DNA of 64,000 nucleotides from GCF_054482525.1 NZ_CM137006.1; one strand, 5' to 3'. Numbered from the stretch's first letter, positions 1-5,717 are shown. Numbers and translations are program-made. The notes: a model not told the origin generated them from the sequence alone.

Positions 1-1083
1 AAAACAGTAAAGCATCAAGTTTTATTCGATGAATTTTATGACTTCTGTTATAGAACTGATTGGATTACTACTCGTCAACCAGATTTAATAACAAAAAATA
101 TAATTAGATCTCGCTTATCTGATATCTATAAAAAAACGAAAAAAATAATTAAGCCGGACAATGTTAGGGATAACTTTAATAATAGATTTGCTGAATATGC
201 TAATTCTTATCCTGATTTAGACCTGACAGTTGTCATACCTGCATATAACTGTGAAGACCTAATTGCTGAAAGCATTGAATCAGTTCTAAAAATATCAGAT
301 ATAAAATTCAATATTATAATTATTGATGATGGTTCAAATGATAACACACAAACAATTTGCCAGGATTATGCGGGAAAATATACTAATGTAGTTTATTATC
401 ATCAAGCCAATAAAGGCGCTGGGCGGGCAAGAAACTCAGTAATTCCGCTATGTACAGGGAAGTATACTTATTTTCTTGATGCGGATGATGTTATTAATGC
501 TAAATCATTAGAGCATGCGGTCAAGAAAGCAATTTTAGAAGATGCCGATTTATTACTTATGAAGTATAAAATTGAATATTATGATGAGAAAAAAACAAGA
601 GGTATGTTTAATGCAGATGACAGATTATGGCAGTCATTTGAAAAAGAAAAACATAAAATAAGGAATTATGCTTCTGCTCTGATTAACTATCCATGGAATC
701 GTATTATAAAAACAGATTTACTACATGATGAAAATATTTTCTTTGGTCCTACTGTTGTGCATAATGATATCCCATATCATTGGCATAGCATAGTTGCTGC
801 ACAGAAAATATCTTACATCAACGATGATGTTTGTATACATCGTAAGTTTGCAACAAGAAGCCAAATCACAAATATATCTGACAGTCGAAGACTTATGGTA
901 TTTGAAGCACTTCGTTATACCCAAGAACGAATTATGCACTATCCGGCGTTCTCAGAAATAAAACAGCAATGGATTAAATTCAGTGTGGAGCTTATTGATT
1001 GGGCAAAAGAGCGAATTCCTTCAGATATGCATGAGCAATTTAATGAATATAAAGAAGAGTTTATAAATTCTTTACCAAATTAA
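1..1083 (+). CDS. Glycosyltransferase family 2 (capsule region 2), 5'-truncated at window edge
   Basis: Frame 1 is open from nt 1 to the stop at 1081-1083 (checked codon by codon). Translation has GT-A signatures VVIPAYNCED and IIIDDGSNDNT plus FLDADD. Low GC. Confidence 0.75.
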   Translation, partial: KTVKHQVLFDEFYDFCYRTDWITTRQPDLITKNIIRSRLSDIYKKTKKIIKPDNVRDNFNNRFAEYANSYPDLDLTVVIPAYNCEDLIAESIESVLKISDIKFNIIIIDDGSNDNTQTICQDYAGKYTNVVYYHQANKGAGRARNSVIPLCTGKYTYFLDADDVINAKSLEHAVKKAILEDADLLLMKYKIEYYDEKKTRGMFNADDRLWQSFEKEKHKIRNYASALINYPWNRIIKTDLLHDENIFFGPTVVHNDIPYHWHSIVAAQKISYINDDVCIHRKFATRSQITNISDSRRLMVFEALRYTQERIMHYPAFSEIKQQWIKFSVELIDWAKERIPSDMHEQFNEYKEEFINSLPN

Positions 1084-1128
1084 ATATTCAAAATGAATAT
1101 ATTTTAATAACCATCAACTGGAGATGAA

Positions 1129-2235
1129 ATGTACGATTATCTTATTGTTGGGGCCGGATTATTTGGATGTACGTTTGCTCGCTTGGCAACGGACGCAGGG
1201 AAAAAATGTCTTATTATTGAAAAACGAGAACATATAGCAGGGAATTGCTATACGGAAAAAAAACATGGCATTCACCAACATATATATGGTCCCCATATCT
1301 TTCATTGCAATGATGATGATATATGGGATTTTGTGAATCGCTTTGCAAAATTTAATAGCTTTATAAATCGACCTATTGCTATAAATAATGGTAAAGCTTA
1401 TTCCCTTCCATTTAGCATGTACACATTTAATGCTATGTGGGGAGTTCTGACGCCTGAGGAGGCGATTGCAAAGATTGAATCACAAAAGCTTAAGTTAGAA
1501 CGTAAACCATTGAATTTGGAAGAGCAGGCTCTTTCGCTAGTTGGTACTGATATATACAATACATTAATTCGCGATTACACCAAAAAACAGTGGCAGAAAG
1601 ACCCTAAAGAATTACCCGCATCAATTATTACCCGCCTACCAGTGAGAATGACTTGGGATAATAATTATTTCTTTGATAAATTTCAGGGTATACCCATTGG
1701 AGGATATACCTTAATGTTTGAAAATATGTTGAAGGGAATAGAGGTTAGAGTAAACACTGATTATTTTGCTAATAAAGAATATTTTGATGGGCTAGCGAAA
1801 AAAATTGTTTTTACTGGCAAAATTGATGAGTTTTATGACTACAGATTTGGGGAGTTAGAGTATAGGGCATTGAAATTTGAAAATGAACTATTGCCAATGA
1901 AAAATTACCAAGGTAATGCAGTTATTAACTACACATCAGCAGATATCCCATGGACAAGAATTATTGAACATAAATATTTTGATGAGGTGAGTGCGGAGGA
2001 GGATGTAACAATTATAACAAAAGAAATACCTGATACGTGGGCTAGAGAAAAAATACCGTATTACCCTGTTGGTGATAATTATAATAAAAGCATTTTCAGA
2101 AGATATAATGAAATAACAATGACTGATAAAAAAGTTATTTTTGGTGGACGACTAGCTGAGTACCGTTACTACGATATGCATCAAGTCATTAGATCTGCCT
2201 TTAATAAATTTGAGCAAGAGTTAGGAAGAAAGTAA
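1129..2235 (+). CDS. glf: UDP-galactopyranose mutase
   Basis: 368 aa; N-terminal FAD-binding motif MYDYLIVGAGLFGCTFA; overall Glf-like sequence and length. Confidence 0.9.
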   Translation: MYDYLIVGAGLFGCTFARLATDAGKKCLIIEKREHIAGNCYTEKKHGIHQHIYGPHIFHCNDDDIWDFVNRFAKFNSFINRPIAINNGKAYSLPFSMYTFNAMWGVLTPEEAIAKIESQKLKLERKPLNLEEQALSLVGTDIYNTLIRDYTKKQWQKDPKELPASIITRLPVRMTWDNNYFFDKFQGIPIGGYTLMFENMLKGIEVRVNTDYFANKEYFDGLAKKIVFTGKIDEFYDYRFGELEYRALKFENELLPMKNYQGNAVINYTSADIPWTRIIEHKYFDEVSAEEDVTIITKEIPDTWAREKIPYYPVGDNYNKSIFRRYNEITMTDKKVIFGGRLAEYRYYDMHQVIRSAFNKFEQELGRK

Positions 2236-3078: not shown

Positions 3079-4248
3079 ATGAAAATTACCATTTCCGGAG
3101 CCGGCTATGTCGGTTTATCCAATGCTATCCTACTTTCACAAAATCATGATGTTACTTTAATTGATATTAACAAACAAAAAGTAAACTTCATTAATGATAA
3201 AATGTCACCAATTTTTGATGAGGATATACAATATTATCTGGTTAATAAAAAGTTAAAATTATATGCAACTCAGGATAAGCATTCTGCATATAAAGATGCT
3301 GAATATGTAATAGTGGCAACTCCTACTGATTATGATCCAGTCTCGAATTATTTTAATACAAGCTCAGTAGAGGAAGTTATCCATGATGTTATAGAAGTAA
3401 ATTCTCAAGCAACTATCATAATCAAATCTACAGTCCCCGTCGGCTTTACTGAACGACTCAAACGCGATCTAAACACGAATAATATTATCTTTTCCCCGGA
3501 ATTTTTACGTGAAGGTAAAGCTCTTTATGACAACCTATATCCATCTCGTATAGTTGTCGGAGAGCGTAGCGAACGAGCAAGAAAGTTCGCTGAGCTTCTC
3601 TGTGAAGGTGCTATAAAAAAAGATATTCCAATATTGTTAACGGATAGCACTGAAGCTGAAGCCATTAAACTTTTTGCAAATACTTACCTTGCAATGCGGA
3701 TTGCTTATTTCAATGAATTGGATACTTATGCCTCCGTTCATGGTTTAGATACAAAGCAAATTATAGAGGGTGTTGGTTTAGATCCTAGAATTGGTCAACA
3801 CTATAATAATCCTTCTTTTGGTTATGGAGGTTATTGCTTACCTAAGGATACCAAGCAATTACTCGCAAATTATCGTGATGTTCCGCAGAACTTAATCCAG
3901 GCTATTGTCGATGCCAATACTACCCGAAAAGACTTTGTTGCGGAGGATATATTAAGTCGTAAACCAAAAGTTGTAGGAATCTATCGCCTCATAATGAAAG
4001 CAGGTAGTGATAACTTTAGAGCAAGTAGTATTCAAGGTGTAATGAAACGACTCAAAGCCAAAGGAATTGAGATAGTTGTATATGAACCTGCACTAAAAGA
4101 GCCTCATTTCTTTGGTTCTTATGTTGAGCGTGATATTAATTCTTTTAAAGAACGTGTTGATGTTATAGTAGCCAATCGCCGCACGTCAGAATTAGAAGAT
4201 GTAAGTGAAAAAGTTTATACGCGAGATTTATTTGGTGTCGACTCTTAA
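3079..4248 (+). CDS. ugd: UDP-glucose 6-dehydrogenase
   Basis: 389 aa; N-terminal NAD-binding [16 protein letters not shown]; Ugd/KfiD-like length and sequence. Confidence 0.9.
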
Positions 4249-4250
4249 TT

Positions 4251-5717
4251 ATGTTCAATAATTTAAAATTTTTATGGCTATTAAAGAAAGGTCGATATGT
4301 ACATGCTTTAGCTGCAATACAAGATGACTGCCGATTTTGGCAGTCAAAACGTATATTGGCAATGTACAGGCTTAATATGTATTGGTCATTACATAATCTT
4401 ACTGATACACCGCCAGATTGGCGGTGTAAATTAGCAATTAAAATAGCTAAAATTGCCTGTGGTGACATAAGCTTAACTCCGGAATTACTCATGGAGTTTA
4501 AAGACGAGTACACAGAAACACATCAAAAAGTTGAGTTAGCAAAAACCTTAGCATCATACTCTCCTGAGTTTTCATTATCATTATTAGATAATGCCGATAA
4601 TTGTCCCTTAGACTTGTATACAGCTCTTCAATTAAGAATCGGGTTAACTCAAAAAGCTATATCAACACTCGCTCAGATTGATGTCAGTGATATTGTATAC
4701 TCCCCTGATATATTACTCTTGCAAAATAATGCTTTCAGAGAAACGGCAGAAATCTCTTTAAATAGACTTAACGAATACTATAAGTACTTTGGTTTATCTC
4801 CAGTCGCACTTGCAGATAACTCATCTCCGTTGTCACCTTGTAATATTATTACATTGGTTCCTTATCCTGTCCAAACGGGCCCCCTGGTTTCTATTTTAAT
4901 GACAACATACAATACCGGCAGGCGGGTAGAAAATGCAGTAATATCATTGCTTAATCAAACATATCGTTCATTTGAGCTAATTATTGTGGATGATGCCAGC
5001 ACCGATGATACGCTATTTCGTCTTCAGAGATTAGCACTCAAAGATACTCGAATAAAAATTATTAGCCTGCCACAAAATGTTGGAACATATGCTGCAAAAC
5101 GAATAGGTTTAATACAAGCAAAGGGAGAGTTTGTGACATGCCATGACTCAGATGACTGGTCCCATCCTGAAAAATTATTTAGACAGATATCACCTTTATT
5201 GTTAAACCATAAACTAATTTGTTCGATCTCTGATTGGGTAAGGTTGCAAGATAATGGGATTTTCTATGCGCGTGCGGTCTATCCACTAAAAAGACTGAAT
5301 CCTTCTTCTCTGCTGTTTAGAAGAGCGGATGTATTGCAAAAAGCGGGCGTTTGGGACTGTGTTAAAACGGGTGCTGATAGTGAATTCATTGCTCGACTTA
5401 AGCTAATTTTTGGTGCTTCCTCTATACATCGTATTAAATTGCCTTTGACACTAGGAAGCCATCGTACCGACTCGTTAATGAATTCACCTACAACAGGATA
5501 TACATCTCAGGGAATTTCACCAGATCGCCAAAAATATTGGGATTCCTGGTCGCGATGGCACATTCAGGCGTTAAGAAATAAAGAAAGTCTTTACATAGGA
5601 AATTCTGATTTCACTAATAAAAATCGACCATTTTCTGCGCCAGACTCAATATTAGTAGATACTAATGCCATCAAAACTGCATTACAAAGTGCTCATGTTA
5701 ACTTTACCAGTATATAA
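4251..5717 (+). CDS. Two-domain glycosyltransferase (central GT2 domain, ~200-aa N-terminal extension)
   Basis: 488 aa; ATG at 4251 is 2 nt after the ugd stop (coupled). GT-A core VSILMTTYNTGRR...LIIVDDASTDDT...CHDSDDW. Confidence 0.7.
   Translation: MFNNLKFLWLLKKGRYVHALAAIQDDCRFWQSKRILAMYRLNMYWSLHNLTDTPPDWRCKLAIKIAKIACGDISLTPELLMEFKDEYTETHQKVELAKTLASYSPEFSLSLLDNADNCPLDLYTALQLRIGLTQKAISTLAQIDVSDIVYSPDILLLQNNAFRETAEISLNRLNEYYKYFGLSPVALADNSSPLSPCNIITLVPYPVQTGPLVSILMTTYNTGRRVENAVISLLNQTYRSFELIIVDDASTDDTLFRLQRLALKDTRIKIISLPQNVGTYAAKRIGLIQAKGEFVTCHDSDDWSHPEKLFRQISPLLLNHKLICSISDWVRLQDNGIFYARAVYPLKRLNPSSLLFRRADVLQKAGVWDCVKTGADSEFIARLKLIFGASSIHRIKLPLTLGSHRTDSLMNSPTTGYTSQGISPDRQKYWDSWSRWHIQALRNKESLYIGNSDFTNKNRPFSAPDSILVDTNAIKTALQSAHVNFTSI

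Follow-up and report, generated by a model that had tools for sequence, protein, structure and literature searches.

Which capsular polysaccharide does a group 2 capsule locus specify when part of its serotype-specific region lies beyond the edge of the available DNA, and can its K type be named from sequence? The question is raised by positions 1-5717 of a 64,000-nucleotide stretch of GCF_054482525.1 NZ_CM137006.1, read as one strand (hereafter the window, meaning the whole stretch). An earlier note, made from the sequence alone, had placed here genes for a UDP-galactopyranose mutase (Glf), a UDP-glucose dehydrogenase (Ugd), a hexapeptide acetyltransferase and glycosyltransferases of family 2 (GT2), had deduced from them an O-acetylated K antigen of galactofuranose (Galf) and glucuronic acid (GlcA), and had held that the K type could not be named. 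Our map of open reading frames and family scans found all of these genes within 1-5717, and the family assignments, together with the K53 gene set, show the chemical deduction to have been right. The K type, however, can be named. We conclude with high confidence that 1-5717 represents the promoter-distal five-sevenths of region 2 of the K53 group 2 locus (KL53), for which a biosynthetic route is proposed below.

Two catalogues of Escherichia coli kps loci, kTYPr and EC-K-typing, published in 2026, draw on serological reference strains, and both treat K53 and K93 as a pair (PMC13171598, PMC13171606). The genes shared by the two types are named K53_K93_7, 8, 10, 11, 12 and 13, and the type-specific gene is either K53_9 (222 amino acids, aa) or K93_9 (227 aa) (PMC13171606). 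In the InterProScan table of the kTYPr supplement, K53_9 carries the checksum 6b00cf84c24ac82fafbf1c78398c7973 (PMC13171606), and the MD5 that we computed for the 222-aa acyltransferase encoded on the plus strand at 2262-2930 is the same. The equal checksums mean that the window acyltransferase is, residue for residue, the product of the K53-specific gene. The earlier note had named identity of region 2 with an already typed cluster as an observation that would count against it, and for the acyltransferase this is what was found. The kTYPr gene order is kept for K53_K93_7 (446 or 488 aa, depending on the start codon), 8 (389 aa), 10 (368 aa) and 11 (664 aa, cut by the window edge).

To place the locus among sequenced strains, we searched 5,426 complete RefSeq E. 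coli genomes by megablast. Bases 1-5798 were present at 99.9-100% identity in 27 of these genomes, and BLAST gave 100% DNA identity to strain 2452, where the genes run in the order kpsM, kpsT, a 583-aa protein, a 580-aa protein, the 664-aa transferase, glf, the acyltransferase, the dehydrogenase, the second transferase and kpsS. Region 2 thus has seven genes, five of which fall in the window; the leftmost of these is truncated by the window's left edge. As judged from strain 2452, what lies beyond that edge is kpsMT, two region 2 genes (K53_K93_12 and K53_K93_13, both present in that strain) and the 5' half of the gene for the 664-aa enzyme; the annotations of strain 2452 and of one genome with a sister locus place kpsMT directly upstream of region 2. 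The K53 reference strain is SSI 81999, listed with Bax et al. 1988 as its structure reference (kTYPr supplement, PMC13171606), and both it and SSI 85376, its K93 counterpart, have been sequenced (PMC13348134).

The sister locus, which occurs in 12 of the 5,426 genomes, has an unchanged gene order and a different acyltransferase (67.6% DNA identity). When the proteins of the window-type and sister-type loci were compared, six identities equalled the published K53-versus-K93 values to the third decimal: 137/214 (64.019%) for the acyltransferase, 340/365 (93.151%) for Glf, 444/446 (99.55%) for the 446-aa transferase, 662/664 (99.699%) for the 664-aa transferase, 578/580 (99.66%) for the 580-aa protein and 388/389 (99.74%) for the dehydrogenase. 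The 583-aa protein has one accession common to both loci. From the checksum match and the matching identities we identify the window locus as K53 and the sister locus as K93-type, and we reject a novel K type. A weaker line of evidence is that strain K-15KW01, of sequence type (ST) 127, has the window-type locus and that an ST127 O6:H31 isolate was typed as K53 (PMC13171598); glf, moreover, is present in just three loci of the EC-K-typing database (PMC13171598). The strain can therefore be assigned to K53 in epidemiological work or when phage or vaccine targets are chosen. The wider significance is small, as the chemical deduction from sequence rediscovers the known K53 antigen: the locus is already catalogued and is ordinary apart from a harmless-looking insertion sequence, IS1, beside it.

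Is the K53 locus also functional? Compared with the catalogued K53 locus (kTYPr K53; EC-K-typing KL53; SSI 81999), which has the same gene order and the identical acyltransferase, the window has only this IS1 as an addition, which the earlier note had missed. The element occupies 768 bp on the plus strand (5799-6566, with insA at 5854-6129 and the insB frame at 6048-6551), has inverted-repeat ends, is 99.87% identical to annotated IS1A copies, and is flanked by a 9-bp target duplication, TCATTTATT, at 5790-5798 and 6567-6575. In strain 2452 the site is empty and the two flanks overlap by exactly 9 bp (BLAST). The insertion lies 82 bp past the last region 2 stop codon and 48 bp past that of kpsS, and no reading frame is broken. 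None of the 5,426 complete genomes has an IS1 at this site in the spacer between region 2 and kpsS, and a scan for terminators and promoters around the element returned nothing beyond chance. A position in a 3'-3' spacer leaves the genes on both sides unbroken, and the locus is therefore probably functional. The strongest competing explanation is that the strain is K53 by sequence and yet silent or impaired, either through an effect of IS1 on the 3' ends or the stability of the transcripts or through damage to the left of the window. Its appeal lies in the uniqueness of the insertion, its closeness to both stop codons and the part of region 2 that falls outside our view. Nevertheless, the duplication is clean, the element lies past the ends of both transcription units, and over 9.4 kb of region 1 there is a single base difference from relatives free of the insertion; we therefore regard a silent or impaired locus as improbable. 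The IS1 offers an example of insertion elements settling in the convergent kps spacer without breaking genes.

A second alternative is that the locus belongs to K93, or to an untyped sibling such as KL164, with the same backbone and another serotype. The similarity is indeed considerable, as six of the seven region 2 genes are common to the K53 and K93 loci at 93-100% protein identity, and KL164 is a third glf-containing relative that stands next to KL53 in the published tree (PMC13171598). In the K93 locus (KL93; SSI 85376) the backbone genes are the same, with the two glycosyltransferases, ugd and the two upstream proteins 99.6-100% identical and glf 93% identical. The two loci part in a single stretch, a cassette of about 1 kb at 2077-3078 of the window, which takes in the acyltransferase with the spacers on either side of it and the 3' end of glf, as delimited by pairwise DNA alignment: near-identity stops at about alignment column 128 (about position 2077), inside glf and roughly 52 codons ahead of its stop, and returns at the ugd start codon at 3079. 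The differences between the two glf alleles are accordingly clustered in the last ~52 codons, and the proteins of the cassette-flanking genes are 99.6-100% identical between the loci. The counterpart in the sister locus (L002 9077-10246) has a different glf 3' end, different spacers and a 227-aa acyltransferase that is 64% identical (137/214) to the 222-aa window enzyme; the latter does not qualify as K93_9. Across the complete genomes this capsule locus has two acyltransferase alleles only, and the window has the one found in 27 genomes, the product of which carries the K53_9 checksum. On this comparison of K53 with K93, an assignment to K93 or KL164 is very improbable, and we retain K53.

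The pattern of the K53 and K93 cassettes looks like a recombinational swap of an acetyltransferase module, to judge from the alignment. The K53-specific enzyme is predicted to be a left-handed beta-helix O-acetyltransferase of the hexapeptide type: it matches PF00132 (Hexapep) with 27.5 bits against a cut-off of 27, and its best NCBIfam matches are the WbbJ, LacA and Maa O-acetyltransferases, each under the equivalog cut-off. The pair is a clean natural experiment in which a 1-kb acetyltransferase swap suffices to change the serotype. The sole homologue outside chromosomal kps loci in the genome collection is an acyltransferase gene on the 79.6-kb plasmid NZ_CP082350.1 of strain AL.H8 (29781-30380), more distant from both alleles, with 68-71% DNA identity to each of the K53 and K93 genes.

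We then considered what the other region 2 genes would contribute. Every one of them lies on the plus strand and converges on kpsS, and the G+C content is 31-39% over 1-6000 and 45-56% in region 1. The earlier note had counted two GT2-type glycosyltransferases; both genes are there, but the complete locus encodes three GT2 domains, and the left-hand gene is a truncated 664-aa enzyme. This gene is not a reading frame of 174 aa: frame 1 runs without interruption through positions 1-1083, which encode the C-terminal 360 of the 664 residues of K53_K93_11. This fragment, with PF00535 at its residues 76-241 and the motifs IIDDGS and DAD, contains the second GT2 domain alone. Strain 2452 encodes the full-length protein, in which PF00535 occurs twice, once with the motif DSD and once with DAD; each DXD is intact, and both domains look catalytically competent from their sequence. 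Two GT2 domains in tandem, each with a DXD motif, recall the K4 chondroitin polymerase KfoC (PDB 2Z86), and the 664-aa enzyme matches KfoC residues 367-507. The likeness is at the level of domains only, however, and the K53 locus adds a third, separate GT2 enzyme.

The gene that follows, at 1129-2235 on the plus strand, is glf in the K53 allele of K53_K93_10, and its 368-aa product scores 386 bits against TIGR00031 (equivalog cut-off 304), with matches to the FAD-binding N-terminus PF13450 and the GLF domain PF03275. Downstream of the acyltransferase, at 3079-4248 on the plus strand, lies a ugd/kfiD-like gene for a putative 389-aa UDP-glucose 6-dehydrogenase (K53_K93_8). This protein matches TIGR03026 with 349 bits (cut-off 190) and three UDPG_MGDP_dh Pfam domains, and it matches the UDP-glucose 6-dehydrogenase model NF011631 over its full length with 680 bits, under the cut-off of 757. 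It is 63.5% identical to KfiD of K5 (PMC13171606 table). The comparison with the K5 heparosan cluster kfiABCD extends to other genes, the 446/488-aa enzyme being 32% identical to KfiC and the 583-aa protein about 30% identical to KfiB. The K53 locus differs in lacking the KfiA/GT45 N-acetylglucosamine (GlcNAc) transferase and in having Glf, a two-domain GT2 enzyme and an acetyltransferase, and its product would differ from heparosan in having Galf in place of GlcNAc.

The last region 2 gene, at 4251-5717 on the plus strand, encodes the KfiC-like glycosyltransferase K53_K93_7, in which a helical domain (residues ~2-180) resembling tetratricopeptide repeats (TPR) precedes a GT2 domain (PF00535 at 214-331). 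RefSeq and kTYPr both use a start at 4377, giving 446 aa, while a start at 4251, two bases past the stop codon of the dehydrogenase, gives 488 aa. Homologues with 40-51% identity occur in Pantoea, Aeromonas, Caldimonas, Cupriavidus and Chromobacterium as well as in numerous metagenomes, and they span 96-100% of the 488-aa form. The consensus of their alignment opens at the same methionine as the longer form, with A19 and L41 nearly invariant, and AlphaFold2 assigns the first 40 residues a predicted local distance difference test (pLDDT) of 88-95. This conserved N-terminus and the shared methionine argue for translation from 4251. The true start is thus probably 4251, as far as alignment and model can indicate, and the public annotation would be 42 codons too late.

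In the same enzyme, the earlier note had pointed to an N-terminal domain of about 200 aa as unexplained. The domain is real, with about 210 residues preceding the GT2 part, and an explanation can be offered. The N-terminal 205 residues alone matched no Pfam family, while homologues have weak to borderline TPR matches in Pfam at equivalent positions (for example TPR_19 with 26.8 bits, cut-off 25). The AlphaFold2 model (pLDDT 89, predicted template modelling score 0.89) has 13 helices in residues 2-179, followed by a GT-A fold. On the strength of the model and the TPR matches in homologues, we read the domain as a conserved TPR-like helical repeat, which may serve protein-protein contacts in an assembly complex. 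The GT2 domain carries the motifs DDA and DSD, the latter in an invariant alignment column. Its best PDB sequence match is the GT2 domain (residues 28-240) of PmHS2, the heparosan synthase of Pasteurella multocida (E = 6.5e-32), which is also the top match by Foldseek, and it matches residues 373-473 of the K4 chondroitin polymerase in both sequence and fold. In PmHS2 and in the K4 polymerase alike, the matched part belongs to the KfiC-like half, which transfers GlcA. The kTYPr table gives 32% identity of the 446-aa enzyme to KfiC (PMC13171606). Taken together, these matches make the KfiC-like enzyme the best candidate for the beta-glucuronosyltransferase.

What polymer would this set of enzymes make? 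Judged by gene families, the locus supplies UDP-Galf and UDP-GlcA and provides inverting GT2 transferases and an O-acetyltransferase, as is predicted for an O-acetylated Galf-GlcA polymer. Bax and colleagues reportedly found both the K53 and the K93 polymer to be ->3)-beta-D-Galf-(1->4)-beta-D-GlcA-(1->, with the O-acetyl groups at O-2 of Galf in K53 and at O-5 and O-6 in K93. Gene content, with two UDP-sugar suppliers, inverting GT2 enzymes and one acetyltransferase that tracks the serotype, fits this structure. The title of Bax et al. 1988 is cited for both K53 and K93 in the kTYPr supplement (PMC13171606), and the text index of a 1985 paper on K93 in J Exp Med contains the terms 'galactofuranos-', 'glucuronic acid', 'acetyl' and 'K53'.

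In the proposed route, Ugd would oxidise UDP-glucose to UDP-GlcA and Glf would contract UDP-galactopyranose to UDP-Galf. The chain would grow on a primer of poly-3-deoxy-D-manno-oct-2-ulosonic acid (poly-Kdo) and lyso-phosphatidylglycerol, which KpsS and KpsC would make from cytidine monophosphate (CMP)-Kdo supplied by KpsF and KpsU. The inverting GT2 domains would add the two sugars alternately in beta linkages. Here the KfiC-like enzyme at 4251-5717 would be the likeliest GlcA transferase and one domain of the 664-aa enzyme the likeliest Galf transferase, and the remaining GT2 domain may start the chain by joining a first sugar to the Kdo linker, or be redundant. The hexapeptide enzyme would O-acetylate Galf in the cytoplasm, the allele present setting the acetylation pattern and hence K53 or K93 serology, and the chain would finally be exported by KpsMT, KpsE and KpsD. 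The weakest rival, that the sugars are destined for another glycan such as O-antigen or colanic acid or that the GT2 enzymes build a different polymer, is scarcely credible: the roles do rest on sequence and the ugd-like gene does fall under the curated equivalog cut-off, but the genes lie inside kps region 2 with the low G+C content typical of such cassettes, an unrelated metagenome contig has the same seven-gene order, at ~50% identity, near kpsC/kpsS homologues, and the locus belongs to reference strain SSI 81999, the polymer of which has been chemically analysed according to the kTYPr supplement (PMC13171606).

Several points nevertheless weigh against a K53 locus that works by this route. 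The type-specific gene is the only one proven identical to that of the K53 reference strain. When the checksums of the shared region 2 proteins were held against the kTYPr table, K53_9 remained the sole match, and the kTYPr MD5 values of the shared K53_K93 genes differ from those of the RefSeq alleles tested; such non-matches should not be over-read, since in that table two proteins that differ in name and length share a checksum. As kpsMT and the left end of region 2 fall outside the window, it is from relatives that we take them to be complete in this strain. IS1 may have an effect on expression. Finally, the locus has three GT2 domains for two linkages, and which domain makes which linkage is inferred.

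The genes to the left of the window raise the further question of how chain length might be controlled. The 580-aa region 2 protein (gene at L001 9304-11046, left of the window in relatives) is annotated as hypothetical and has no Pfam match and no PDB sequence match; PDB sequence searches with the 583-aa and 580-aa upstream proteins gave coiled-coil noise only. Its structure model consists of an N-terminal Rossmann-type domain, a coiled coil of about 150 residues (~215-367) and a C-terminal globular domain, with pLDDT >90 in the globular parts. Foldseek matches in the PDB are cation-dependent O-methyltransferases of the catechol O-methyltransferase type. The published table places a methyltransferase-fold match at residues 379-564, and the kTYPr authors had already mentioned putative coiled-coil methyltransferases in group 3 clusters (PMC13171606). 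In the light of that mention we treat the 580-aa protein as a lead and not as a discovery. As far as the predicted structure can tell, the architecture is reminiscent of WbdD, the chain-length terminator of O antigens that depend on an ABC transporter. A WbdD-like termination mechanism is not known for group 2 capsules, and K53 and K93 are not known to carry a methyl group.

Homologues of the 580-aa protein share contigs with homologues of the KfiC-like transferase. In the compost-metagenome contig RCUO01000342.1 (L004 635-18757) the whole module is present in the same order at ~50% identity, as measured for the KfiC-like transferase, and adjoins rml genes and homologues of kpsC and kpsS. The module there comprises a 586-aa DUF8374 protein in the KfiB-like position, a coiled-coil methyltransferase-like protein, a two-domain GT2 enzyme, Glf, Ugd and a TPR-GT2 enzyme, with a 428-aa DUF6395 protein in the acetyltransferase slot. 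One might speculate from models and analogy that region 2 of K53 and K93 is a self-contained polymerase-plus-terminator machine that has spread beyond E. coli, in which the 580-aa protein, read as a methyltransferase-like domain, a coiled coil and a second methyltransferase domain of the catechol O-methyltransferase type, caps or measures the chain and the slot between glf and ugd is exchangeable, being occupied by acetyltransferase allele A in K53, allele B in K93 and a DUF6395 protein in the compost homologue. We regard this idea as doubtful.

Opposite region 2, the earlier note's statement that the locus converges on kpsFEDUCS, as in a group 2 capsule locus, was confirmed by an intact set of minus-strand genes at 6615-14568, all in order and of reference length. 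They are kpsS (6615-7856), for a beta-Kdo transferase that assembles the lipid-linked Kdo linker, with length and position as in strains 2452 and AH50, and, as in annotated relatives, kpsC (7891-9918), kpsU (9915-10655, a CMP-Kdo synthetase annotated as kdsB), kpsD (10665-12341, an outer-membrane export protein), kpsE (12365-13513, an inner-membrane/periplasmic export protein) and kpsF (13585-14568, an arabinose-5-phosphate isomerase). Between 6567 and 16000 there is one mismatch to strain 2452. The locus thus has the intact region 1, and the low-G+C region 2 transcribed towards it, of a group 2 capsule locus.

Beyond region 1, an IS4 lies just past kpsF at 15363-16709. The 64-kb window contains no tRNA gene. 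From 16.7 to 64 kb it is a mosaic island with Ag43, toxin-antitoxin sets of the CbtA/YeeU type, antirestriction genes, RadC, IS100, IS3, integrases and a ParDE pair. The closest relative of bases 14.6-39.5 kb is the poultry strain AH50 (99.7%), and bases 39.5-64 kb are 100% identical to the canine strain 746.

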